Positions 1,517 through 61,473 of a DNA stretch of 64,000 nt are shown here, piece by piece (positions within the stretch are counted from its first letter, which is position 1; each line of letters starts with the position of its first letter). This stretch comes from Candidatus Saccharibacteria bacterium UBA6824 (GTDB lineage: Bacteria > Patescibacteriota > Saccharimonadia > Saccharimonadales > UBA10212). The position numbers were made by a program, and so were the translations under genes. Under the pieces are notes generated by a model. That model did not search any database and was not told where the DNA came from. It worked only from the letters and a program-made list of their open reading frames with translations. The stretch covers positions 70,675 through 134,674 of the forward strand of contig DKEK01000005.1 in NCBI GenBank assembly GCA_002452155.1, given 5' to 3'.

Positions 1517-1752
1517 TTATACTAGTGATTTTAGATATTCTTTACCAGCACCGGACTTTAAATACTTCTCTCTTGTACGGGCAGCGAGACGACTCGCACA
1601 TGTTTCTTGATAGATAATCCTAAAAGGCGCATATGATCGAGTCGTTCTTTCATGCCCTTGATTATGTCGCTTGACACGTCTATCAAGGTCACTAGTCAAG
1701 CCACGTATATATAGTTTTTAGTTAGGCTTTTCAGTGCATAAACTTTGTACAT
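1517..1752 (-). pseudogene. GIY-YIG (COG2827/YhbQ-like URI-domain) nuclease gene with a 1-nt frameshift
   Basis: ATG at 1752 gives MYKVYALKSLTKNYIYVA followed by a stop. The -1 frame continues (G)LTSDLDRRVKRHNQGHERTTRSYAPF...REKYLKSGAGKEYLKSLV (track ORF 1517..1699). Restoring one G near 1700-1704 (GTGGC to GTGGGC) would give a canonical YIYVGLTSDL GIY-YIG core. It could instead be a sequencing error. Confidence 0.6.
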
Positions 1753-3602: not shown

Positions 3603-3676
3603 GGCGCGATGGCCGAGGAGTTAGGCAAAGGTCTGCAAAACCTTTTACACGGGTGCGAATCCCGTTCGCGCCTCCA
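3603..3676 (+). tRNA. tRNA-Cys(GCA)
   Basis: Acceptor stem GGCGCGA/TCGCGCC, anticodon stem AAGGT/ACCTT with loop CTGCAAA, T arm ACGGG-TGCGAAT-CCCGT, encoded CCA. Confidence 0.9.
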
Positions 3677-3679
3677 CCT

Positions 3680-3764
3680 GGGCGGGTGGCGGAATTGGTA
3701 TACGCTGCGGACTTAAAATCCGTTGCCGCAAGGCTTGAGGGTTCGAGTCCCTCCCCGCCCACCA
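3680..3764 (+). tRNA. tRNA-Leu(TAA)
   Basis: Acceptor stem GGGCGGG/CCCGCCC, anticodon loop CTTAAAA, long variable arm, T arm GAGGG-TTCGAGT-CCCTC, encoded CCA. It lies 3 nt after tRNA-Cys. Confidence 0.9.
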
Positions 3765-4277: not shown

Positions 4278-4354
4278 GCGGGTGTAGCTCAGTTGTTTAG
4301 AGCGCGTCCTTGCCAAGGACGAGGCCAGGGGTTAGAGTCCCCTCACCCGCACCA
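4278..4354 (+). tRNA. tRNA-Gly(GCC)
   Basis: Acceptor stem GCGGGTG/CACCCGC, anticodon stem CGTCC/GGACG with loop TTGCCAA, encoded CCA. A perfect 16-bp palindrome GTCCGCCTAGGCGGAC (4259..4274) precedes it. Confidence 0.9.
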
Positions 4355-4435
4355 TCCTACTTCGCGTAAAGCTTCGTAGGATTTGTGCGAAGTAGGATGC
4401 CCTCCATAGCCTTTTGGCGACGGAGGGCTTATTGT

Positions 4436-4681
4436 ATGACTATGTTTTACGTATATCTACTTAGGAGTCTTAATTATAACCAGACTTATGTCGGTTTCTC
4501 GAGAGACGTCCAAATAAGATTAAATCACCACAACGAAGGAAAAAGTCCGCATACAAGCAAATACAAACCCTGGAAACTGGTAACGTATTTTGGTTTTGAA
4601 TCTGAATCAAGAGCAAGGGAATTTGAGAAGTACCTAAAAACAGGATCGGGCATTGCTTTTGCCAGAAGACATCTTTTTTAG
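4436..4681 (+). CDS. GIY-YIG (COG2827/YhbQ-like URI-domain) nuclease
   Basis: Translation is M(T)MFYVYLLRSLNYNQTYVGFSRDVQIRLNHHNEGKSPHTSKYKPWKLVTYFGFESESRAREFEKYLKTGSGIAFARRHLF, a canonical small GIY-YIG layout. The track ORF starts at 4385; ATG 4436 or 4442 is the more likely start. Confidence 0.75.
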   Translation: MTMFYVYLLRSLNYNQTYVGFSRDVQIRLNHHNEGKSPHTSKYKPWKLVTYFGFESESRAREFEKYLKTGSGIAFARRHLF

Positions 4682-4806: not shown

Positions 4807-6186
4807 ATGAGCAACAAACGACCTCTGCTAAAAGCCTTGAGGCAGACCATGATTCAAGATGTACCGGCTTACGCCAACAAGTTTTTCTACTCCCTTGGAT
4901 TTCTGTCGATGACTTGTTTTATGATTCTGCTCGTGACGGGAGTCGTAATGGCGGGTTTCGGTCCCGATTGGTGGCTGACTAGCGGGATTGGCAGATACTT
5001 TCGCAGTGTCCATCTTTGGGCCACCCAAGCTTTTGTACTGTTTATTATTCTGCATCTTCTGATTGTATTTTTGACTTCCGGCTTTAAAAAACCGCGGCGT
5101 TTGACTTGGGTAATAGGTGCCATAATGTTCTTCTTCGTGATAGCCGAAGCCGAGTTTGGTTATGTACTGCGGGGCGATTTTTCCGGCCAATGGCGCTCTC
5201 TACAAGGAGCCGATTTCTATAACGGTACTGGCATCGGCGCCTGGATTAACAATATTAACTACCGACAGATTTATGGCATTCATGTTGTAGCAATTCCGAT
5301 TATCCTGCTGGGGCTGCTGTTTTTACACTACTTACGAATACGTATCTTGGGCATTGCCGAGCCCTACCGGAAAGACGTTCATGTGCCGACAGTTAGGGCA
5401 AACCACAAGGCGCTGTTTGTCCGGGGTGGTGTACTAATAGGACTAATCTTAGCCTTGTCTGTTTTATTGCCATCACCATTTTTGGAACCTAACACCGCTA
5501 AACAAGTCGCCGCCAGCGACCCTAAACTGGTAGGCCAAACTCTCATAAAAGAATTTGACCGCTCTTCCGACACCGCGGGGTATCTCGATAGTATTGACCC
5601 CTATAAATATGATACAAGGAGTATTTATGTAGAGCAGCCATATGCTCAGTTGTCTAGCCTGTTACATACGCCAAACTTGCTGCAAAAATATAATTCTGAG
5701 CCGCAGGCTTTGCAGGACTCTCAACTGAAAGCTGCCCAAGACTACTTTGATAATGCCTACCCGGCCAAAGCCGATGCTAACAACCCGCTTGAGCCAGTCG
5801 TAATATCTTTGATAAACATGGCTTCAGCCGGGCTGTACCAGCCGGCGCTTAACTCGGCTAGCCCGTCGGGCGACCAAACGACCTACGGCCTGCGTTTTTT
5901 GGCCGACACCGGTGTCATGGATGACCGGGCGCAAGCTCTAGGCATTACCACCGACCAATATGGTATGCTGCGCGAAGAAAAGGGGCGTATTCCCCCCGGT
6001 GCTTGGTGGCTAGCGCCAATCGGCCTGCTTAATCATACCGTACTGGCTCATGACGATAACGGTGACCGAGACGGTGCCATAATCATGGGGTTATTCTTAC
6101 TGTTACTTATTGCATTCCCTTACATACCAGGCTTAAACCGACTGCCCGAGTGGCTGAAGGTCTCCAAACTAATTTGGCGTGTATAG
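4807..6186 (+). CDS. di-haem cytochrome b N-terminal-domain protein fused to an unknown ~200-aa domain and a C-terminal TM helix
   Basis: 459 aa. The cytochrome b/b6 N-terminal pattern is present: FYSLGFLS..., helix B HLWATQAFVLFIILH (H-x13-H), helix D HVVAIPIILLGLLFLH (H-x14-H), and WVIGAIMFF...GYVL between them. No Rieske or cytochrome c partner gene is adjacent. Confidence 0.7.
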   Translation: MSNKRPLLKALRQTMIQDVPAYANKFFYSLGFLSMTCFMILLVTGVVMAGFGPDWWLTSGIGRYFRSVHLWATQAFVLFIILHLLIVFLTSGFKKPRRLTWVIGAIMFFFVIAEAEFGYVLRGDFSGQWRSLQGADFYNGTGIGAWINNINYRQIYGIHVVAIPIILLGLLFLHYLRIRILGIAEPYRKDVHVPTVRANHKALFVRGGVLIGLILALSVLLPSPFLEPNTAKQVAASDPKLVGQTLIKEFDRSSDTAGYLDSIDPYKYDTRSIYVEQPYAQLSSLLHTPNLLQKYNSEPQALQDSQLKAAQDYFDNAYPAKADANNPLEPVVISLINMASAGLYQPALNSASPSGDQTTYGLRFLADTGVMDDRAQALGITTDQYGMLREEKGRIPPGAWWLAPIGLLNHTVLAHDDNGDRDGAIIMGLFLLLLIAFPYIPGLNRLPEWLKVSKLIWRV

Positions 6187-11480: not shown

Positions 11481-11556
11481 GGCTCTTTAGCTCAGTTGGT
11501 AGAGCAGAGGCTTGAAGAGCCTTGTGTCCCCAGTTCGAGTCTGGGAGGAGCCACCA
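11481..11556 (+). tRNA. tRNA-Phe(GAA)
   Basis: GGCTCTTTAGCTCAGTTGGTAGAGC D arm, anticodon loop TTGAAGA, T arm CCCAG-TTCGAGT-CTGGG, encoded CCA. Confidence 0.9.
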
Positions 11557-12384: not shown

Positions 12385-12469
12385 GGGTGAGTGGTGAAAC
12401 TGGTATACACGCAGCCTTGAGGTGGCTGTGCCGCAAGGCGTGGAGGTTCAAGTCCTCTCTCACCCACCA
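12385..12469 (+). tRNA. tRNA-Leu(GAG)
   Basis: Acceptor stem GGGTGAG/CTCACCC, anticodon stem CAGCC/GGCTG with loop TTGAGGT, long variable arm, encoded CCA. Confidence 0.9.
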
Positions 12470-13763: not shown

Positions 13764-13840
13764 GGGCGCTTAGCTCAGTTGGCTAGAGCATCTCGTTTAC
13801 ACCGAGAGGGTCGGGGGTTCGAGTCCCTCAGCGCCCACCA
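13764..13840 (+). tRNA. tRNA-Val(TAC)
   Basis: GGGCGCTTAGCTCAGTTGGCTAGAGC, anticodon stem TCTCG/CGAGA with loop TTTACAC, T arm GGGGG-TTCGAGT-CCCTC, encoded CCA. Confidence 0.9.
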
Positions 13841-34631: not shown

Positions 34632-35696
34632 TTAGACTACTATTCCTCCTCCCAGGCATTGGTCGTCGGAGTAGAAGACGGCGGATTGGCCGGGAGTTAG
34701 TGCCCGTACGTCTTCCTCCAAGTCAGCACTCCAGAAATTACTTGAGCGGTTAAGTTTTTTTACTGTAATCAACTTGGCACGGTGACGAGTGCGGACAAAA
34801 AGTTCTTGGTCCTTTTGAGGTTGGCTATTTATCCAATGAATGCCGGTCAGTTTGATCTGATTATTCCATAACCTATTGTCTTGCAGGTCGGTTGTGACGT
34901 GAATCTCATTCTTCTTTATATCTTTACCGACCACGTAAAACGGCAAGCCACCCTGCCTACCGGCAGGCAGGCGCCCTCCAGTTCCTAGGCCGTGGCGCTG
35001 GCCGATAGTGTAGAAAAAAGCGCCATCGTGCTCCCCAAGCGTCAGGCCTTTTTGGTCGATAATCTTGCCCGGCGTTTCCTTGATGTACTGCTTTAGAAAA
35101 TCTTTGATACTAACTTTGCCTACAAAACAGATGCCCATGCTTTCTTTTTTATCAGCCGTTACTAGGCTGGCTTTTTTAGCCAGGGCTCTGACTTCGGGTT
35201 TTGTCAGTCCGCCAAGCGGGAATAGGGTCTTACTGAGCGCGGTGGAGTCTACGCGGTGCAAGAAGTAAGTCTGGTCTTTATTGCCATCTTTAGCCGTGAG
35301 TAGCTGGCCGTTTTTAACTTTTGCATAATGACCGGTGGCAATATAGTCTGCCCCGCCGCGCAGCGCTGTTTCTAAAAACAACTTAAATTTAATTTCCTGA
35401 TTGCACATAATATCGGGGTTGGGCGTGAAGCCCGTCTCATAGCCTTGCAACATATATTTGACCACTTTATCAAAGTAATCTTTCTCAAAATCATAGACCT
35501 TAAACTCAATCCCAAGCTGCACGGCTACACGTTTAGCGTCTTGGTAGTCCTCTTTCCAAGGGCATTTCATGCCGGGCAAGTCCTGGCTCCAATTCTTCAT
35601 ATAGACGCCAACGACATGAAAGCCCTGCTCCTTTAGAAGCAAAGCGCTAACGGAGGAATCAACGCCCCCGCTTAAGCCAACGTAAACTGTTTTCAT
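34632..35696 (-). CDS. mnmA: tRNA 2-thiouridine(34) synthase MnmA
   Basis: PP-loop VGLSGGVDSS, catalytic Cys regions and ...YTIGQRHGLG... The track starts at TTG 35714; ATG 35696 (MKTVYVGLSGG) is more likely. Confidence 0.93.
   Translation of the reverse strand: MKTVYVGLSGGVDSSVSALLLKEQGFHVVGVYMKNWSQDLPGMKCPWKEDYQDAKRVAVQLGIEFKVYDFEKDYFDKVVKYMLQGYETGFTPNPDIMCNQEIKFKLFLETALRGGADYIATGHYAKVKNGQLLTAKDGNKDQTYFLHRVDSTALSKTLFPLGGLTKPEVRALAKKASLVTADKKESMGICFVGKVSIKDFLKQYIKETPGKIIDQKGLTLGEHDGAFFYTIGQRHGLGTGGRLPAGRQGGLPFYVVGKDIKKNEIHVTTDLQDNRLWNNQIKLTGIHWINSQPQKDQELFVRTRHRAKLITVKKLNRSSNFWSADLEEDVRALTPGQSAVFYSDDQCLGGGIVV
34952..34971. repeat. palindrome-family copy CCTGCCTACCGGCAGGCAGG inside mnmA
   Basis: One mismatch from the perfect palindrome. 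Translated as LPAGRQ in GLGTGGRLPAGRQGGLPFYVV, a loop between conserved blocks. Confidence 0.9.
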
Positions 35697-35710
35697 TGGC
35701 TTATAGTTTA

Positions 35711-35950
35711 TCAAACATCAAGGAAAACGGTGACTTTGTCGCTCTTGACGTGCATGACGGCTTGGTTAACCGTCATGGCAAAGTCGTCTTTGCCGGCTAT
35801 CCGCACTTTGACTTCCCCCGGTCTTAGTAAACACATGAAGTTTTTATGGCGCGGTAAAATATCAAATGGGCCGCTGTCATTGACGGCCGAGACACTGGCC
35901 GCCGGACCATCAAAATATACTTTGAACGGGGCGTAGATCTTTACGGCCAT
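35711..35950 (-). CDS. atpC: F1 ATP synthase subunit epsilon (short, beta-sandwich only)
   Basis: MAVKIYAPFKVYFDGPAASVSAVNDSGPFDILPRHKNFMCLL... It immediately follows atpD. Start chosen at ATG 35950 to avoid overlap with atpD. Confidence 0.75.
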   Translation of the reverse strand: MAVKIYAPFKVYFDGPAASVSAVNDSGPFDILPRHKNFMCLLRPGEVKVRIAGKDDFAMTVNQAVMHVKSDKVTVFLDV

Positions 35951-38142: not shown

Positions 38143-38146
<4 letters not shown>

Positions 38147-39594
38147 GCGCCGGCTCCCGAAGTTTGGGCGGCAGCCGGGGCTGTCCCGGTTTTGAGGCTG
38201 GCCAGCTGCTGCTGGTAATTAGACTCAGTCTTAACTGCCGCGGCTGCTACAGCGACGGCTTTTTTAAGATTAACGATGTTTAGATTCGGGCCGCTATCGG
38301 GCGCCAAAATTATATCGAGCATCATTTGCTGGGCCATTACGCTGTAAGTTTCACCTGGGATTTGACTAAACAGCTTATCTAACTGTCGGCCTTTTTGCAG
38401 TACTTGCTGGCTGTCGGCCGACATCTCGGCCCCAAAACGGGCAAATTCCTGGGCCTTTTTGTATTCGCCGAGCAGCTTAAGGACTACGGCATTTTGGTCT
38501 TTTTGGCGGGAATTTTGACCGACACCACCAACCCGGGTTACTGATAAGCCGGTGTTAAGCGCCGGACGGTGGCCGCTGCGAAAAACTCCCATATCCAGGA
38601 TCCACTGGCCATCGGTAATCGACATAATGTTGGTCGGCAGGTAGGTAGAGATGTCACCCCCCTCAGTCAAAACGACTGGTATGGCGGTTAAGCTGTGATG
38701 GTTGGTTTTTAGTTTTCCGGCCCGTTCCAGCAAGCTGGAGTGGGCGTGGAAAATGTCACCGGGATAACTATCGCGGCCCGGGCTGGTACCCAATAGCAAT
38801 GATATTTCACGGTAAGCCTGGGCGTGGGCGGTTAAATCATCATAGACCACCACCACGTCCTGACCCAATTTTTGCCACAAATATTCGGCCAAAGCGCAGC
38901 CGACATAAGGCGCCAAATAACTGGCGACTAAAGACTCAAAAATGGTTGATACAACTACGATCGATTTTTCCATTACGCCGGCATCAGATAGGCGCGTCAA
39001 CAGCATATCAACATCACTACGGCGTTTGGCAATTAAGACATAGACAACAACTTGGTCGGTGCTGCGTTGGTTGATGGCAATTTGAGTAGCCAGGGTAGTC
39101 TTACCGGATTTGCTATCGCCGAGTAGTGCCAGCCGCTGGCCGCGGACGATTGGAAAAAGGGCATCAATTAGGGTGATACCGGTTTCTAGCTGGGTACTTA
39201 GCAGCTCACGTTCATAAATTGGCGGCGCCGGGTTAAAAACCGGCCAGTTGGCGTCAGCCGCGATGGCGCCTTTACCATCCAGCGGCTCGCCGTTCACCGA
39301 AACAACCCGGCCGATAAAGTCCTTGCCCACTTTAGCGCTTAAGTTCTCGTCCTGGACTACAGCTAAAGTGCCGATTTTAAGCTGGCTTGTGTCAAGGCGC
39401 AAAACCATCACCTGTTCTGGCAGTATGTCGCGCGTAAAACCGTGGCTGCCATCCTCAAAAACTATTAGCGAGTGGCTGCTAACCGGCTGGAGACCCTTCA
39501 CCGCCACCAAAAAACTGTTGAGGGCTATGACTTCGCCTACCGGCCGGCCGGCATCGACCAGTTTTTGGAAGTGCTGGCTGGAACTCGTGCTCAT
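38143..39594 (-). CDS. atpA: F1 ATP synthase subunit alpha
   Basis: Walker A GDSKSGKTTLA and alpha-type motifs (RPALNTGLSVTRVGG). Confidence 0.93.
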
Positions 39595-39697: not shown

Positions 39698-40261
39698 TCA
39701 TGGCTTACCTGCCTGGCCGGCAGGCAGGCCCGCCGTGGTTGTCGTACCCGGTGCCGGTGCGTCCAGGGCGGCGCCTTTTAAGAGTTCCAGGAGATAGGGC
39801 GTCTGTTTTTCCAGGCTGGCGCCTAAGCTCATATCAAAAATTTTATTAGGCGTCCTTAGCACGCAGCCGGCAGCAATCGCCGGCTGCAAGCCAATCTGCA
39901 CTAGTGTATAGCGGTGAACGTTTGTCCGCAGCCAGTTTAGTATGGTTTCCGTCACTTTCGGTGAAGGCTCGGCTGCAAAACTAACGTGCACCGTCGGCGC
40001 GTGGTCACGGATTTTGGTTAATTGATCGGCCATGTGTCGTCGATGGGGCTGTTGCTGCAGTTTATAGCCGTTAGCCAAGGCGGTTTGGTCGAGCAGGTTG
40101 GTAACTTTGGGGGCTTGAGTTTCCCGGACCGGCTGGCTAATTAAGGCTTCTTCAAGCGTCTCTAGTTCGCGCAGTAAGTGGTTAATGTCGGTTCTACCAC
40201 TTAGCTGAGCCGGCAGTACAAACGCGGCAGTCTCGACTGGCTTTTGGCTTTTAAGCGCCAC
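39698..40261 (-). CDS. atpH: F1 ATP synthase subunit delta (OSCP)
   Basis: It sits upstream of atpA. The C-terminal half is OSCP-like (VHVSFAAEPS...AIAAGCVLRTPNKIFDMSLGASLEKQ). The tail DAPAPGTTTTAGLPAGQAGKP contains the palindrome copy. Confidence 0.75.
   Translation of the reverse strand: MALKSQKPVETAAFVLPAQLSGRTDINHLLRELETLEEALISQPVRETQAPKVTNLLDQTALANGYKLQQQPHRRHMADQLTKIRDHAPTVHVSFAAEPSPKVTETILNWLRTNVHRYTLVQIGLQPAIAAGCVLRTPNKIFDMSLGASLEKQTPYLLELLKGAALDAPAPGTTTTAGLPAGQAGKP
39708..39728. repeat. palindrome-family copy CCTGCCTGGCCGGCAGGCAGG at the atpH 3' end
   Basis: 21-nt variant with one extra G. Translated as LPAGQAG, 3 codons before the stop. Confidence 0.85.
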
Positions 40262-40904
40262 GTTTGATGTCCTCTATGATGGCGGCCTTATTATTCTCCA
40301 GCTCCGTCAGGATAAATTCCAGTTGGTCGGAGAGGTCAATTTGGTTACCGATGGCTTGCATAACGTAGTGGTTAACGATCCGTGCCATCTGAGCTTCAAA
40401 ACGAGCGATGATTTGGTTGCGCTCGGCTTCGGACTGGTTTTGCATCTGGCTTTCCAGCAGCTGGCGCTGCTGTTCGATTGTGGTGACCGTCTTTTCGATA
40501 GAATCGAGCGCCAGCTGTTTGGCGTCTGTAATAGACTGCTCGTATTTTTTAAATTCGATTTGCAGGGTGCGGGTAATCTCGGTCCGCATGTATTCATTGA
40601 GCTGGGTAGTCGTCTGTCGCAGGTCCTGCTGCAAAAACATGGCGTTTTCGCCAATGATTTTTTCAAAATGCAGGCGGCCGCGGTTACGCAATTCTTCGCG
40701 AAAGTCATCATTAAAGATATGTTCGACGTCTTCCTGGGCCATTTGACTGATGGCTTGAACTGGTTGGGGCGGCTCGTTGGTTTTGACGGCTGCTGGCCCG
40801 CTTGCTGCCGGTTTTTTGTGCCTGGCGCGCCAGTCAAAATAAAGGATGGCCGCAATCGCTGCTAATGCCCCGCCGACTATTAATAAAATCCCACCTAAAT
40901 CCAT
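40251..40904 (-). CDS. putative ATP synthase subunit b-like protein (N-terminal TM plus long coiled coil)
   Basis: 217 aa with a single N-terminal TM (ILLIVGGALAAIAAILYF) and a helical, Q/E-rich remainder. It overlaps the atpH start by 11 nt. The assignment rests on architecture and position only. Confidence 0.45.
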   Translation of the reverse strand: MDLGGILLIVGGALAAIAAILYFDWRARHKKPAASGPAAVKTNEPPQPVQAISQMAQEDVEHIFNDDFREELRNRGRLHFEKIIGENAMFLQQDLRQTTTQLNEYMRTEITRTLQIEFKKYEQSITDAKQLALDSIEKTVTTIEQQRQLLESQMQNQSEAERNQIIARFEAQMARIVNHYVMQAIGNQIDLSDQLEFILTELENNKAAIIEDIKRGA

Positions 40905-40908
40905 AGTT

Positions 40909-41706
40909 TTATATTCTTAATAATAAGTATATGCCAAACAAGCCGCCAACGAATACAATCGCCGCGGCGATAATTACTTGCGCTAGACCCTGCATAATGG
41001 AGTGCTTACTCAAAGGATTTCGGCCGATGGCAATCATGCCGCTGCGAACGCCCACCCAAAGTAGCCCAAAGGCAACGATTACTGTTACGACAAAAATAAT
41101 TAGAGCCGCGTAGATGCGGCTGGCCGACAGCGGTTTGCCGGCGATGGACTCGCCCAGCCGACGCAGTACTGATGGTACGGCAGTGTTTTCGCCTAGTCCG
41201 GGGTTTTTACCGGGCGCCACTTGAACCGAGATTTTACCGATAGTCGAGCCATTCTTGCCGCTGCCCAGGCCGCCGGACGTGCCATCGAAGTTGCTTGCCG
41301 CACGGCCAAGCACATATGTCTGGCCTTTAAGGCGGGCGGCTATGCCGTCGGCTGATGACATTGAGAGATAGTCACCAGAGGCGATTGGCCCATTTTCGGT
41401 ACTGACCAAAACCGGATAAATACCGCCGGTGACTACAAAAACATTTTGTCCTGGCTGCTGGGCTGTTACCGGTGGTGCAGCTGGTTCGACCGCCACTCCG
41501 TAAATGCGCGTTGGGTCACTTGCCGGAGCCAGCTCAACACTGGTTTTATCTGAGACAACCAGCGCCACAACCCGCCCCGGTTCAATAGCGCCTTTGCCGT
41601 TAAAGCTTCGAGTTACGGTTTCGGCCCGGGCATGAATAGATATCCCGGCCAAAGCTAGTAGCAGCGTCACGGCCAATAATTTCAAGGACAGCCATCTCAT
41701 ACTCAC
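40909..41706 (-). CDS. secreted/membrane protein with C-terminal two-helix hairpin carrying an IGRNP loop (subunit-c-like?)
   Basis: Signal peptide MSMRWLSLKLLAVTLLLALAGISIHARA, then a beta-rich domain of about 170 aa. The C-terminus reads IYAALIIFVVTVIVAFGLLWVGV-RSGMIAIGRNPLSKHSIM-QGLAQVIIAAAIVFVGGLFGIYLLL. Confidence 0.5.
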   Translation of the reverse strand: MSMRWLSLKLLAVTLLLALAGISIHARAETVTRSFNGKGAIEPGRVVALVVSDKTSVELAPASDPTRIYGVAVEPAAPPVTAQQPGQNVFVVTGGIYPVLVSTENGPIASGDYLSMSSADGIAARLKGQTYVLGRAASNFDGTSGGLGSGKNGSTIGKISVQVAPGKNPGLGENTAVPSVLRRLGESIAGKPLSASRIYAALIIFVVTVIVAFGLLWVGVRSGMIAIGRNPLSKHSIMQGLAQVIIAAAIVFVGGLFGIYLLLRI

Positions 41707-41726: not shown

Positions 41727-42863
41727 TTAATTTTTGAGGAGTTGGGAAAGAGTTTTGAGCGCGTATTTAATATCATTTTGGCTGGTCTGGCGGCCGAAAC
41801 TAAAACGCAGGCTGGAGCGGATGGCCGGCGCGCCAAGACTTATGGCTGCCAGTACGTGCGATGGTTCATCGCTACCGGCATTGCAGGCACTACCGGTAGC
41901 TACTTGCAGTCCGCGCTCATCAAGCTCCATCATCAGCCGTTCATTATCGATGCCGGGGAAGGTGACGCTCAAAATATGCGGCGCGCTGTGTTTTGGCGAA
42001 CCATTCACTACCGCCTGCGGAAATGTTCTTTGCAAAGTTTCTATAAATAACTGCCGTAGCTGCGCCACCCGTTTGGCCTCGGCAGGCCGTTTTTCTTGGG
42101 CAATATCCAGGGCGGCAGCCAGACCAATCACGCTAGCCACATTTTCGGTACCGGAGCGCAGGCCGTTTTCCTGGCCGCCGCCCAAAATTAGCGGCCGCAG
42201 CCTAACCCCACCACGTATATATAGCGCCCCGCTTTGTTTGGGCCCGTAAATTTTACCGCCGTTGATACTCAACAAATCAACGCCCAAGCGAGCAGTGTGA
42301 AGATCAAAATAATTGGGCGCCTGGGCAGCGTCGCTGTGCAGATATAGTGGGAGTCCTTGGGACCCGCGTAATTTCCTTAACCTGTTAAGCATTTTGACAA
42401 TGTCGCGCAAGGGTTGAACTGTGCCGATTTCATTATTAACTAGGCCGACGCTAACCAAAACGGCCCTAGGACTAATCATTTTTTCCAGCTTGGCAATATC
42501 GACTATTCCTTGGCGGCTGACTGGGATTTGGCGGTGCCTAAAAAACTTGGCTGGTTCCAGTACCGATTCATGTTCGACGGCGCTGACTAGTACTTCGCTG
42601 TCCGGAAAAGCCCGCATGATGCCTTGCACGGCCAGGTTGTTGGCTTCTGTTGCTCCGGCCGTGAAAGTGATTTCGGCCGGCCGGGCGCCCAAGTTTTGGG
42701 CAACGGAAGCCCGGGCGTCTTCTAGGGCCTGCCTGACCGCCCGGCCAGCCAGATAAACGGCCGAGGGGTTATAAAATTGCCTCTTAAAAAACGGCTCCAT
42801 TTTCTTTAGAACCATAGGGTCGATTGGGGTCGCTGCTGCGTAATCTAAATAGATTTGTTTCAT
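41727..42863 (-). CDS. cysteine desulfurase (class V aminotransferase, IscS/NifS-like)
   Basis: IYLDYAATPIDP-type N-terminus, PLP-lysine region SINGGKIYGPKQSG, and active-site Cys loop ATGSACNAGSDEPSHVL. Confidence 0.85.
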   Translation of the reverse strand: MKQIYLDYAAATPIDPMVLKKMEPFFKRQFYNPSAVYLAGRAVRQALEDARASVAQNLGARPAEITFTAGATEANNLAVQGIMRAFPDSEVLVSAVEHESVLEPAKFFRHRQIPVSRQGIVDIAKLEKMISPRAVLVSVGLVNNEIGTVQPLRDIVKMLNRLRKLRGSQGLPLYLHSDAAQAPNYFDLHTARLGVDLLSINGGKIYGPKQSGALYIRGGVRLRPLILGGGQENGLRSGTENVASVIGLAAALDIAQEKRPAEAKRVAQLRQLFIETLQRTFPQAVVNGSPKHSAPHILSVTFPGIDNERLMMELDERGLQVATGSACNAGSDEPSHVLAAISLGAPAIRSSLRFSFGRQTSQNDIKYALKTLSQLLKN

Positions 42864-43639
42864 ATGCCGAACAATCCGCGAGCGTTTTTGGTTGTATAAC
42901 CGGCCAGTTCTTCAATCGGCTCATCCCGTAAGCCAGCCAAAAAATCGGCAATATCCAAAATATGTTTCGGTTCGCAGGTTTTACCACGATACGATTTCGG
43001 CGCCAAAAACGGTGCGTCGGTTTCTAGCAGTAACTTATCCTTTGGCACCTTTTGGGCGGCTTCGAGCTGGGTCTGATCACTCGTGAAGGTCATGATGCCA
43101 TTTAGGGCCACGTGCAGGTCGCGACTCAGGGCTTCTTCCAACTGCTCTTCAGAGGCACTGAAACTGTGAACCACTCCGTGCAGCCGCCGGTTAGTGGGCT
43201 GGTAAGAATCGTAGATCCGCCAAAAGTCCGACCAGGCGTCACGGACATGAAAGATAAAAGGCAGATCCGTGGGAATACCCAGCTCAATTTGCAGGCGGAG
43301 TAGTTTCTCTTGAAGGGGTTTTGGCGAATAGTTTTTGTAAAAGTCCAGGCCAATTTCGCCGATGGCTACGACTTTGGGCTGGTCCAGTAATCGCTTCAGT
43401 GTTTTCGGGGCGCCCATGCGACCGAAAAAGTTTACGGCGTCGTGCGGATGAACGCCGACGCTGGCCCAAACATTTGGCTGAGCCTGGGCGATATCAATAG
43501 CCTTTTGGCTATCACTGACACTGGTGCCAACACACACTAAGCCGGTTACAGCCGCTTTTTGGGCATCTTTAAGCACGCTGTCCAGTTTGGCAGCCAGTTG
43601 TTCAAATTGAAGATGGCAATGAGTATCAATTAGTTCCAT
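42860..43639 (-). CDS. TatD-family metal-dependent hydrolase/DNase
   Basis: LIDTHCHLQF, GVHPHD, IGEIGLDF, HSF and ETDAPFL motifs. Confidence 0.9.
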   Translation of the reverse strand: MELIDTHCHLQFEQLAAKLDSVLKDAQKAAVTGLVCVGTSVSDSQKAIDIAQAQPNVWASVGVHPHDAVNFFGRMGAPKTLKRLLDQPKVVAIGEIGLDFYKNYSPKPLQEKLLRLQIELGIPTDLPFIFHVRDAWSDFWRIYDSYQPTNRRLHGVVHSFSASEEQLEEALSRDLHVALNGIMTFTSDQTQLEAAQKVPKDKLLLETDAPFLAPKSYRGKTCEPKHILDIADFLAGLRDEPIEELAGYTTKNARGLFGI

Positions 43640-43641
43640 AT

Positions 43642-45102
43642 TTAAGGGGCCGGCTGGGGCGTGGTTTGATGTTTGGGAAAAAGCGAAGCCGGCAGCGGCT
43701 TTAGGACGCCGGTGCCAAAAGTGCTTTGGATTTTGGCGGCCGTATCGGGCATAAAAGGCGCCAGCAAGCTAGCAATTTCCAGCAGGTTGGAAGCTAGGTA
43801 GGCCAGGACTTCGCGCAGGTGCTCTTCGTCGCCAGTCTTAGCCACTTCCCAAGGCTTTGATTCGTCAATATATTGGTTGAGACCCTTAACTTGTTCCCAG
43901 ACTTCGTCCAGGGCCTTATCGAAGCGATAGTCTTGAAGGTGGCTGCTATACGCCGCCACGTCGTGTTCGGCCGGCGGCACTTCGCCGATGATACCATTTT
44001 GGTATTTGGTAATCATGGCGGCGGTGCGTGAAACGGCATTGCCCAGCTGGTTAGCCAGCTCGCTGTTGTAGGCGGCTTCCATCATTTCCCAGGTGAAGTC
44101 GCCATCACCGTAACTGGGTATGTGGCGAGTCAAAAAATAGCGGGTGGCGTCAGTGCCATACTTTTCCACGACTTGACGCGGGGCAATAACGTTGCCCAGT
44201 GTTTTGCTGATTTTCTGGTTGTTTATATTTACAAAGCCGTGGACATAGAGTGACTTTGGAAGTTTGAGGCCAAGGGCCAGCAGCATGGCCGGCCAGATGG
44301 CGGCGTGAAAGCGCAAAATGTCTTTGCCGATAACTTGGATGTCGGCCGGCCAGTAAGTTTTAAAGTCGGCGTGTTCCGGATAACCGAGAACCGTGATGTA
44401 GTTCATCAAGGCTTCGAACCAGACGTACATGACCTGGTTTTCGTCGCCGGGCACGGCGATCCCCCAGCTAATTTTATCCTTTGGCCGGCTGACAGAAGTA
44501 TCGGTCAGGCCGGCTTTTAAGACGGATAGGATTTCGTTCTTGCGGCTGCCCGGGACGACCCGAAAGACGTCGGTCGTAATAGCCTCGGCGATTTGCGCAG
44601 CCATTGCCGAAGCTTTAAAAAAATAGTTTTCTTCTACTAATTTTTCATACGGCCGGTTATGGTCCGGGCAAACGCCTTTGTTGTCTTTGACGACTTTTTC
44701 CGGAAAATATTCTTCGTGGCCGGTACAGTACCAGCCGCTATATTTGCCTTTATAGATATGACCGGCGGCGGCTAATTTTTGCCAAATTAATTGCGCCCGC
44801 TGCTCGTGCCCGGAGTCGGTGGTACGGATAAAACGGTCGCTGCTAATGCTTAAAACTTTTAAGACCTCGCGAAAGCTCTGGCTAACCCTATCAGCGAATT
44901 CTTTGGGGGCCATTTTGGCTTCGGCGGCCTTTTCGGCGATTTTGCCGCCGTGTTCGTCAGTACCGGCGCTAAAGAGTACATTGTCCCCTTGCTGCCGGTG
45001 ATACCGGGCCAAAACGTCAGCCTGTACCAGCTCCATGCCGAAACCAATGTGCGGTTCAGTATTTACATACGGAATAGAGGTCGTGACATAGAATTTTGCC
45101 AT
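43642..45102 (-). CDS. metG: methionine--tRNA ligase
   Basis: A HIGH-type motif (PYVNTEPHIGF), KMSKS (KISKTLGN), and a class I MetRS core of 486 aa. Confidence 0.93.
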   Translation of the reverse strand: MAKFYVTTSIPYVNTEPHIGFGMELVQADVLARYHRQQGDNVLFSAGTDEHGGKIAEKAAEAKMAPKEFADRVSQSFREVLKVLSISSDRFIRTTDSGHEQRAQLIWQKLAAAGHIYKGKYSGWYCTGHEEYFPEKVVKDNKGVCPDHNRPYEKLVEENYFFKASAMAAQIAEAITTDVFRVVPGSRKNEILSVLKAGLTDTSVSRPKDKISWGIAVPGDENQVMYVWFEALMNYITVLGYPEHADFKTYWPADIQVIGKDILRFHAAIWPAMLLALGLKLPKSLYVHGFVNINNQKISKTLGNVIAPRQVVEKYGTDATRYFLTRHIPSYGDGDFTWEMMEAAYNSELANQLGNAVSRTAAMITKYQNGIIGEVPPAEHDVAAYSSHLQDYRFDKALDEVWEQVKGLNQYIDESKPWEVAKTGDEEHLREVLAYLASNLLEIASLLAPFMPDTAAKIQSTFGTGVLKPLPASLFPKHQTTPQPAP

Positions 45103-61398: not shown

Positions 61399-61473
61399 TG
61401 GTGACCCCAAGGGGAATCGAACCCCTCTTGCCGGGATGAAAACCCGGTGTCCTAACCTCTAGACGATGGGGCC
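61399..61473 (-). tRNA. tRNA-Glu(TTC)
   Basis: GGCCCCATCGTCTAGAGGTTAGGAC, anticodon stem CCGGG/CCCGG with loop TTTTCAT, T arm GGGGTTCGATTCCCC, encoded CCA. It is flanked by a 13-bp inverted repeat. Confidence 0.9.

Follow-up and report, generated by a model that had tools for sequence, protein, structure and literature searches.

A putative non-respiratory F1-like ATPase gene cluster and an accompanying secreted hairpin protein in Saccharimonadales

The subject of this analysis is a cluster of seven genes related to those of the F1Fo ATP synthase, found in a 64,000-nt stretch of contig DKEK01000005.1 (assembly GCA_002452155.1, Candidatus Saccharibacteria bacterium UBA6824). This whole stretch is called the window below, and all positions are window positions. 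On the minus strand the cluster begins with the gene for a secreted membrane protein, designated X, continues with a b-like and a delta-like gene, and ends with alpha, gamma, beta and epsilon. It contains no gene for subunit a or subunit c. With moderate confidence, the products of the seven genes from X to epsilon are taken to form an F1-like ATPase without a respiratory role, which would have diverged as a paralogue from the F1Fo enzyme and would not be the ATP synthase itself. An F1-like motor of this kind is most likely typical of soil and water Saccharibacteria. X is its best candidate for a membrane partner, given its position, its invariant cytoplasmic loop and a helical hairpin shaped like that of subunit c. 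X is probably also tied functionally to a block of pilus-like genes, since it travels with secreted, probably Pam-pilus genes that usually follow epsilon.

An F1-like head and its missing membrane subunits

The original prediction, an earlier reading of the same DNA, had stated that neither atpB (subunit a) nor atpE (subunit c) is in the window, and every search made for them agrees. The best match in the window of a subunit c hidden Markov model (HMM), run with --max, is a non-genic open reading frame (ORF) with an E-value of 0.24. For subunit a there is no match in the window, either by phmmer (--max) with an E. coli query or by a regular expression for the a-subunit R...N/Q..F motif. Pfam scans of 10 candidate membrane or small ORFs of the window likewise give no ATP-synt_A and no ATP-synt_C.

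Related loci were gathered by scanning the GTDB species genomes with the beta protein. At least 80 loci match, of which the best 80 (63-92% identity) all belong to metagenome-assembled genomes of Saccharimonadales, and six further related loci were added. Complete chromosomes are found among these best 80: OZ246413.1 and OY970327.1 (with X) and OZ246406.1 (without X). A scan of IMG/VR with the beta alignment gave no match. In about 89 related loci, taken with 10 kb on either side and amounting to about 1.6 Mb, the c HMM, phmmer with subunit a and the a motif again find no a or c gene. At least 80 species of Saccharimonadales share the cluster without a and c. The membrane side of this enzyme is unusual, as the earlier reading had allowed.

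Evidence for a second, complete operon can be found in published gene counts for relatives. Table S5 of PMC12592800 lists BlastKOALA counts for five complete Saccharimonadales genomes and for a number of bins. TM7x and RAAC3 each have a single gene for alpha, beta, gamma, a, b and c. S. aalborgensis, GWC2_44_17 and M. amalyticus each have two genes for alpha, beta and gamma, and one each for a, b and c. Several CAILAD01 bins have alpha, beta, gamma and epsilon with no a, b or c at all. The two-set counts drew no comment from the authors of that study. They are exactly what a canonical operon together with a second F1 set lacking a and c would give. Because relatives have atpA, atpD and atpG twice and atpB, atpE and atpF once, the cluster would be a separate F1-like ATPase and not one part of a split ATP synthase.

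An example of the contiguous canonical arrangement is provided by the oral species Southlakia epibionticum, in which AtpZ, a, c, b, delta, alpha, gamma, beta and epsilon follow one another (Wang 2023 supplement, PMC10633639). By analogy with the five complete genomes, it is likely that a canonical operon with a and c, and with an alpha and a beta of its own, lies elsewhere in the genome studied here. The original prediction had allowed that a and c might be encoded elsewhere. The counts in relatives make this probably true, but they point to a whole second operon with its own alpha and beta and not to a and c genes alone.

The four F1 subunits of the window are all recognised by Pfam, yet each falls under the NCBIfam equivalog cut-off for the genuine atpA, atpD, atpG and atpC. 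Alpha scores 400.7 bits on the best atpA model (cut-off 554), beta 442.5 bits on TIGR01039 atpD (462.85), gamma 70 bits on TIGR01146 (194.45) and epsilon 40.1 bits on TIGR01216 (67.25). They score almost as high on models of the Mycoplasma F1-like ATPase, the gliding motor and the N-ATPase as on the canonical ones. For alpha and beta, the scores and cut-offs on the Mycoplasma models are 408 and 570 bits for MSC_0618 (the F1-like beta, matched by the window's beta), 262 and 520 for MSC_0619, 346 and 600 for MMOB1660 (the gliding alpha, matched by the window's alpha), and 348 and 850 for MMOB1670.

The residues required for catalysis appear to have been kept. Beta is 43% identical to the E. coli protein, and relative to this reference it retains Walker A, the Glu and Arg of GERxxEG, the Walker B Asp and YVPADD. 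Alpha, as read off its sequence, retains the Walker A GDSKSGKT and the Arg finger in ..TRVGG... Alpha is without about 65 canonical C-terminal residues and ends instead in a low-complexity tail rich in Ala, Gly and Thr (38143-38340). Epsilon consists of the beta-sandwich domain alone, without the C-terminal helices. Judged by the residues checked, the F1 genes are thus diverged yet predicted to be catalytically intact. Since all of those residues are retained, the head should hydrolyse ATP and turn gamma and epsilon.

Two further proteins may represent the peripheral stalk. The delta-like protein matches Pfam OSCP with an E-value of 6.5e-3 (17 bits against a cut-off of 22.3), covering the C-terminal half of OSCP only, and matches the NCBIfam F0F1 delta model with an E-value of 3.7e-5 (23.8 bits against 115). 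The b-like protein has no match in Pfam, NCBIfam or the PDB profile search, and Foldseek was uninformative; architecture and gene position suggest its label. In its AlphaFold2 (AF2) model, a transmembrane (TM) helix at residues 3-28 is followed by a segment of very low confidence (residues 32-49, predicted local distance difference test, pLDDT, below 50) and then by a helix of about 120 residues (66-186). The TM helix and the disordered linker, which is 20-40 residues long and variable in length, vary freely across the clade. The start of the long helix (EELRNRGRLHFEKIIGENAMFLQQDLR) does not vary at all, and the clade alignment contains the invariant stretch EELRNRGRLHFEK..GENAMFLQQDLR. A loosely tethered and unconserved anchor of this kind is not expected of a stator arm clamped onto subunit a.

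The b-like protein has 5550 homologues, and among the matches listed (120) every named one is called "hypothetical". The 120-residue helix opens with a stretch that does not vary, EELRNRGRLHFEK(I)IGENAMFLQQDLR, whose conservation is far above what is usual for b subunits. A difference in the b-like TM helix between genomes with and without X was also considered; it was dropped, as the differences track phylogeny and not the presence of X.

Putting these parts together, a mechanism can be proposed. The head, alpha3beta3 with gamma and the short epsilon, would hydrolyse ATP and rotate gamma and epsilon. It would be held at the membrane by the delta-like protein and the long single-helix b-like protein, with its poorly conserved anchor and disordered linker. 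With no a subunit and no c ring, the complex would move no protons. The proton-translocating enzyme, where present in the lineage, would be encoded by a separate complete operon, atpZ-B-E-F-H-A-G-D-C, elsewhere. ATP hydrolysis would serve pilus or adhesion machinery at the cell surface, as in the Mycoplasma type 2 and 3 ATPases and the "symbiotic" ATPases of Omnitrophota. X would be the most plausible, yet optional, membrane partner (an "X0"), touching the motor through its GRNPL loop. The parts of this scheme that we infer are paralogy within this genome, a physical contact of the motor with X, and what the complex does in the cell.

Protein X and its likeness to subunit c

Both X and the b-like gene lie within the span 40251-41706, which the original prediction had singled out. 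In public gene calls X starts at the ATG two codons downstream of the GTG, which gives a protein of 263 aa. An identical 263-aa protein is present on 10 public metagenome contigs, the longest of 315 kb, and the 265-aa form with the GTG start has no public record.

The features earlier noticed in X, namely a signal peptide, a beta-rich domain and a pair of C-terminal helices, are recovered by translation, alignment and structure prediction. The AF2 model (pLDDT 86) consists of a signal helix, a beta domain at about residues 32-167, a juxtamembrane helix, and a hairpin of two helices, each of about 34 residues, joined by ...GMIAIGRNPLSKHSIM... The hydrophobic N-terminus is kept throughout the X family, and the signal peptide is presumably cleaved after ARA. 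With the signal peptide cleaved, the predicted topology has the beta domain and the C-terminus outside and the GRNPL loop in the cytoplasm.

This loop between the helices is the most highly conserved part of X. In an alignment of 28 homologues at 34-79% identity, G228, R229, N230, P231 and L232 are invariant, and R221, A226, I227, Q243 and V244 are nearly so. About 125 close homologues were found, every one from Saccharibacteria/Patescibacteria. A full profile search extends the family to 9209 cluster representatives at E<=1e-3, with 564 at E<=1e-30. The loop is retained as (A/S)(I/L/V)GRNPL even in distant full-length representatives (E about 1e-47), with rare substitutions such as GRNPM in P0252. 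The contigs of two other distant members, P0250 and P0262, are too short for informative gene context. The family is thus very large, and has so far been found in bacteria that belong to the Candidate Phyla Radiation (CPR) only.

X has a second motif of the (K/R)-N-P type, PG(K/R)NPL, where its outside domain ends. In the window it reads APGKNPG (about 41197-41211, residues about 166-170). Both motifs are present in 107 family members, and in 86 of these it lies precisely 62 residues upstream of GRNPL; N168 and P169 are nearly invariant. The pair may represent an internal repeat or a coincidence.

The beta domain has the fold of phage decoration and appendage proteins. With Foldseek against the PDB, the best match is 8hdt_G from the Pam3 capsid (E 4e-6), and 16 matches reach a probability of 1.0. 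Other matches include decoration proteins of Borrelia phage BB1, T1 and Sf11 and lambda gpD. Against BFVD the best E-value is 3e-9, with 40 matches at E<=1e-3 that include preneck appendage, tail and DUF2190 proteins. Sequence searches are less telling. Pfam PF23982 XM1_gp53 matches X with an E-value of 0.019 and 15.3 bits, which does not reach the family threshold of 27. Some homologues carry precomputed PF22758 or PF23982 matches, one is named DUF2190 by NCBI, and the domain has no match in PHROGs.

The hairpin had earlier been likened by eye to subunit c, and a gene so placed was seen as standing where a and c should be. In shape the likeness is close. Like subunit c (PF00137), X is predicted to have a two-helix hairpin whose two ends face outwards and whose loop, short, basic and with a Pro, lies in the cytoplasm. 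In this loop R-N-P takes the place of R-Q/N-P, and the backbone geometry of the two hairpins is nearly identical in the AF2 model. With Foldseek, the predicted hairpin superposes on F-type c subunits of several phyla with TM-scores of 0.80-0.89 and root-mean-square deviations of 1.3-1.6 A over 67-71 columns, at 15-19% identity and with E-values of only 0.4-1. The X gene also sits right before a b-type gene, as atpE normally does.

The profile tests are negative throughout. None of 50 X-family hairpins is matched by Pfam ATP-synt_C (PF00137), even at E<=10, and a profile of the X hairpin finds no PDB sequence at E<=10 with hmmsearch. For further comparisons, nine c sequences were aligned, of which the PS3 sequence alone was verified against PDB 1wu0 (full length, 134 bits, E 5.8e-39). 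Run in local and global mode, hhalign places the GRNPL of X onto the ARQPE of subunit c, but without significance: the probability is 0.3% and the score of 11.1 lies within the range of 100 column-shuffled controls (9.9 +/- 2.3). In a scan of about 8000 ORFs with the c HMM, X hairpins rank at the top and none is significant (best E 0.064).

Other differences concern the residues on which subunit c depends. About 20 residues after the loop Arg, where the ion-binding Asp or Glu of subunit c would be, the window has Ala and the family A, S, V or I. The earlier remark that the second helix has no Asp or Glu thus holds, by alignment and by translation. In a few family members an Asp is found, shifted from this position by one residue, and in some a Glu replaces Q243. 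Helix 1 has no GxGxGxG motif. Also unlike subunit c, the hairpin is fused behind a secreted domain of 160 residues, and X is dispensable in part of the clade. The likeness is therefore real in shape and loop motif, with no evidence of common descent, and homology of the hairpin to subunit c is unsupported. What stands of the original suggestion is the predicted hairpin and its loop; what does not is X as a relative of c in its place, since profile comparison shows no relationship, the carboxylate and the glycine motif are lacking, about 15 otherwise intact clusters do without X, and members of its family are also found away from any ATPase genes.

Gene neighbourhoods and alternative explanations

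The adjacency of X and the b-like gene, first noticed in this one genome, is widespread among relatives: of about 75 related clusters whose upstream sequence is long enough, about 60 have X immediately before the b-like gene. The spacing between them is 1-40 nt across lineages, including one in which X is only 36% identical. In about 15 otherwise intact clusters X is missing, and the cysteine desulfurase gene is followed directly by the b-like gene. Because X is absent from intact clusters, it cannot be an obligatory subunit.

Downstream of epsilon, 44-56 loci contain a block of genes named here by their coordinates in locus L002: g335r, g245, g397 and g352. The first encodes a reverse-strand protein with a weak bactofilin-like beta-helix match (E 0.01), and the other three encode signal-peptide proteins. 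Beyond that match, these genes have none in Pfam, PHROGs or PDB sequences. The block occupies 16040-20253 of L002 and equivalent positions in about 45-55 of the loci L007-L086, with three or four signal-peptide families and their paralogues. By analogy with the description in a 2026 preprint, it is probably the Pam pilus operon with its tail-fibre-like gene.

The presence of X follows that of this secreted-protein block more closely than that of the ATPase. Among 55 loci well covered on both sides, the block is present in 34 and absent in 11 of those with X, and present in none and absent in 10 of those without X, a bias with a Fisher p of 1.2e-5. Joint absence of X and the block occurs at about three separate places on a beta tree built by neighbour joining, so that it does not reflect one inherited event. 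A 5.3-kb contig, L087, carries tandem X paralogues (672-1520 and 2041-2889) with a gene for a 189-aa single-TM protein between them and no ATPase genes. On either side of this pair are genes for a LamG-domain protein and for proteins homologous to g335r (E 3e-40) and g245 (E 2e-50).

A number of observations weigh against reading the cluster as an F1-like motor with X as its partner. The window's own lineage has X without the block, and no such genes are found within the 64 kb. At least 10 genomes keep the ATPase cluster while having neither X nor adjacent pilus-like genes, so that ATPase function cannot strictly depend on either. The alpha and beta of the window still score best on canonical atpA and atpD models, and pass the cut-off of no F1-like family. 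Both the b-like and the delta-like protein are retained, unlike in Mycoplasma, as would be expected if a membrane stator subunit a still existed. Finally, the second alpha/beta set and the canonical a/c operon are attributed to this genome from its relatives, the cluster is equated with the published second set by gene content and not by sequence comparison, and the Pam identity of the downstream genes is drawn from the preprint that describes that pilus.

Several of these points are shared by the explanation that the cluster is a split canonical ATP synthase, the sole F1 of the cell with b and delta, whose a and c genes (perhaps with atpI/Z) have moved elsewhere and next to which X is an unrelated neighbour. 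It would account for the retention of b-like and delta-like proteins, which are known only for linking F1 with subunit a, for the intact catalytic residues and the canonical top NCBIfam models, and for clusters kept in lineages without X and pilus-like genes; a, b and c are moreover present in all five complete Saccharimonadales genomes of Table S5 (PMC12592800). We nevertheless consider a split synthase improbable. Environmental genomes have two alpha/beta/gamma sets for each a/b/c set, and the one-set genomes, TM7x and RAAC3, fit a contiguous operon of the Southlakia type. All four F1 subunits fall under the equivalog cut-offs, and no annotation source names the b-like protein atpF, the named proteins among its 120 listed matches being "hypothetical". 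Its unconserved TM helix and disordered linker are also ill suited to resisting torque against subunit a. More improbable still is that X is a degenerate true subunit c, fused to an outside domain and forming an ion-free rotor ring in place of c. The common topology, the invariant R-N-P at the site of R-Q/N-P that hhalign pairs with it, the close overlay of the AF2 hairpin, the top rank in the c HMM scan and the gene's location at atpE's usual place all fit such a descent, and putative a, b and c proteins lacking homology to known subunits have been described from ATPase operons of WWE3 and OP11 (Kantor 2013, PMC3812714). Statistical support is nonetheless absent in Pfam, in the PDB profile search and in hhalign against its shuffles, the carboxylate and the glycine motif of helix 1 are missing, about 15 intact clusters do without X, and tandem X paralogues occur with no ATPase nearby. 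An outside domain like the trimeric phage decoration proteins would be unexpected on a ring of 8-15 subunits, and any long helical hairpin can be superposed on subunit c.

The alternative to be taken most seriously is that X has nothing to do with the ATPase and is a component or anchor of a surface filament (Pam-like) or of the envelope, the ATPase genes lying in between by synteny in compact genomes. X varies with the downstream secreted genes and not with the ATPase, their joint losses recur on the beta tree, and in L087 the X paralogues lie directly beside homologues of those genes. A family of 9209 representatives far exceeds the needs of one ATPase clade, and the genes from metG to mnmA are so tightly packed and co-directional that close spacing is little informative. 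What such a role leaves unexplained is that X adjoins the b-like gene in 11 well-covered loci, the window included, without adjacent pilus-like genes, and that the spacing of 1-40 nt is held down to 36% identity in X. That conservation within X is highest in the cytoplasmic loop speaks for a partner in the cytoplasm, and pilus and ATPase genes have been found together in two phyla by independent studies (PMC10066038; bioRxiv 10.64898/2026.03.03.709456). A role of X in pilus or envelope only is a serious alternative, though on balance an unlikely one, and the ATPase could still be F1-like if it held. At the other extreme stands a far bolder possibility, quite unlikely in our judgement: that X forms a ring or platform through its c-like hairpins, that the GRNPL loops dock gamma and epsilon, and that an ion-free rotation or stepping is relayed directly through the membrane to an outside crown of domains like those of phage decoration proteins, which would act on a Pam-type pilus or on the host surface. 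If true, an ATP synthase head, a mimic of c without the carboxylate and a phage capsid domain would together make up a transmembrane rotary actuator powered by ATP, widespread in CPR bacteria. Between these, the preferred reading remains a separate F1-like ATPase with X as an optional partner.

The coordinates of the cluster and its neighbours are collected in the table. The minus-strand gene order given by the original prediction (metG, tatD, cysteine desulfurase, X, b-like, delta-like, alpha, gamma, beta, epsilon, mnmA) is confirmed by ORF calls, Pfam and NCBIfam. The region from metG to mnmA (about 34.6-45.1 kb) is a single dense co-directional array. The stop of X and the b-like gene are 4 nt apart. 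Overlaps of 11 nt between the b-like and delta-like genes, and of 4 nt each between alpha and gamma and between gamma and beta, follow. A promoter and terminator scan of 34-46 kb gave no informative operon boundaries.

Coordinates of the cluster, of the parts of X and of adjoining genes in the window
Feature	Position	Strand	Basis or remark
metG	43642-45102	minus	
tatD	42860-43639	minus	
Class-V aminotransferase / cysteine desulfurase	41727-42863	minus	
X, secreted membrane protein	40909-41706	minus	ORF from GTG 41706; likelier start ATG 41700
X, signal peptide MRWLSLKLLAVTLLLALAGISIHARA, then ETVT	41623-41700	minus	Translation; AF2 helix 4-20, then low-confidence segment
X, predicted extracytoplasmic beta domain and short juxtamembrane helix	41125-41622	minus	Phage decoration/appendage-like fold (Foldseek)
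X, predicted C-terminal TM helical hairpin (helices 195-229 and 231-264)	40915-41124	minus	AF2 model
X, predicted cytoplasmic loop G-R-N-P-L	41011-41025	minus	Alignment; coordinates checked by translation
b-like stalk/anchor protein, 217 aa	40251-40904	minus	AF2 architecture and gene position
delta/OSCP-like protein, 187 aa	39698-40261	minus	Sub-cut-off OSCP/delta matches; placed between b-like gene and alpha
F1-like alpha, 483 aa	38143-39594	minus	Pfam ATP-synt_ab 8e-71
F1-like gamma, 285 aa	37289-38146	minus	Pfam ATP-synt 6e-26
F1-like beta, 443 aa	35961-37292	minus	Pfam ATP-synt_ab 4e-65
epsilon, 88 aa	35711-35977	minus	Pfam ATP-synt_DE_N 4e-14; also in public gene call
mnmA	34632-35714	minus	

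Just upstream of the cysteine desulfurase gene, 37 related loci encode a conserved 122-aa protein with the motif FFCLDEHTWVWHEEW (L002, 5487-5855, and 36 others). The FFCLDEHTWVWHEEW protein is present in all loci without X and absent from the window. Elsewhere in the window, a gene at 4807-6186 on the plus strand encodes a membrane protein of 459 aa that resembles cytochrome b, with Pfam matches to Cytochrom_B_N_2 (2e-15) and Cytochrome_B (3e-14). In the related locus L001, cupredoxin, DoxX and VKOR genes are also found nearby. This hints at a partial electron-transport capacity in this soil lineage. Eight tRNA genes are found in the window, at 1420-1506, 3603-3764, 4278-4354, 11481-11556, 12385-12469, 13764-13840 and 61399-61473. 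Two of the tRNA clusters are adjoined by small ORFs resembling GIY-YIG nucleases, at 1517-1699 (minus strand) and 4385-4681 (plus strand).

Significance and comparison with known systems

Most reconstructions of CPR bacteria and Saccharibacteria count genes such as these as "the ATP synthase" and debate its use without respiration. If many environmental Saccharimonadales carry a second, channel-less motor, and some perhaps only that, such bioenergetic inferences need revisiting. The conversion of an ATP synthase head into the motor of a surface machine, known experimentally only in Mycoplasma, would then be widespread in ultrasmall epibiotic bacteria, and the putative b/delta stalk would represent a stepping-stone form. 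X is a concrete candidate for the membrane partner, and a test system is available in Ca. Mycosynbacter amalyticus, which can be cultivated and is already being studied for its pili and proteome. A literature search found no description of the composition of the Saccharimonadales cluster, of its missing a and c, or of X.

The outside domain of X shares its fold with phage decoration and appendage proteins (lambda gpD, SHP, Pam3, T1, DUF2190 and preneck appendage proteins). Unlike these, X is a cellular protein, anchored in the membrane by a hairpin, and it has no phage context in these bacteria.

A closely related setting is described by Troman 2026 (bioRxiv 10.64898/2026.03.03.709456). A new CPR pilus, Pam, was solved in M. 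amalyticus, a member of the same bacterial class, and ATP synthase subunit genes were reported to lie consistently beside the Pam pilus operon across CPR bacteria. The combination of ATP synthase genes with tail-fibre-like and secreted pilus proteins matches the block after epsilon in 34 loci, and the downstream genes may thus correspond to PamA-T. In the proteome, an abundant alpha and beta have the accessions QHN42722 and QHN42726, and the pam genes QHN43268-43274. Because the accession numbers of alpha and beta are far from those of the pam genes, two separate ATPase loci in M. amalyticus are suggested. The available part of the preprint treats the genes as those of an ATP synthase with a link to metabolism, and describes no missing a and c, no paralogue status and no X.

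Another possible likeness is to the non-respiratory F-type ATPase of Omnitrophota, which lies beside pilus genes (Seymour 2023, PMC10066038). The beta of this "symbiotic" ATPase is reported to cluster with Saccharimonadia betas and its alpha with those of Mycoplasma types 2 and 3, and a role in attachment to, or motility on, host cells has been proposed for it (PMC10066038). Besides this published clustering of beta, a possible parallel is that secreted pilus-like genes adjoin the cluster in 34 of the 55 related loci. The neighbours in Omnitrophota are type-4a pili, whereas here they are probably donor-strand pili of the Pam type, none of them adjacent in the window's lineage. No X-like protein and no b- or delta-like stalk was described there.

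The best-known systems of this kind are the F1-like X0 clusters of Mycoplasma, which consist of seven genes, four of them F1-like and three of unknown function, some encoding membrane proteins (Beven 2012, PMC3369863). The type 2 F1-like X0 enzyme powers the gliding of M. mobile (PMC3369863). The window's alpha and beta match MSC_0618/0619 and MMOB1660/1670 strongly, but stay so far under the cut-offs that they are not members of those families. A putative delta-like and a long, putative b-like stalk protein are present here, unlike in Mycoplasma types 2 and 3, and the membrane proteins differ as well: Mycoplasma has proteins with 3 and 12 TM helices, compared with a single-TM stalk protein and the X hairpin with its outside beta domain. 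In their general plan the two systems nonetheless agree. Both consist of seven genes, with alpha-, beta-, gamma- and epsilon-like subunits and three others that are partly membrane-anchored, and both are without a and c. Here, the three others are X (signal peptide and two TM helices), the b-like protein (one TM helix) and the delta-like protein. The Mycoplasma clusters occur alongside a genuine F1Fo operon, and the published counts in relatives suggest that the present one may do so too. Finally, both are found in host-dependent bacteria with reduced genomes, and both are proposed to act through a membrane sector "X0".

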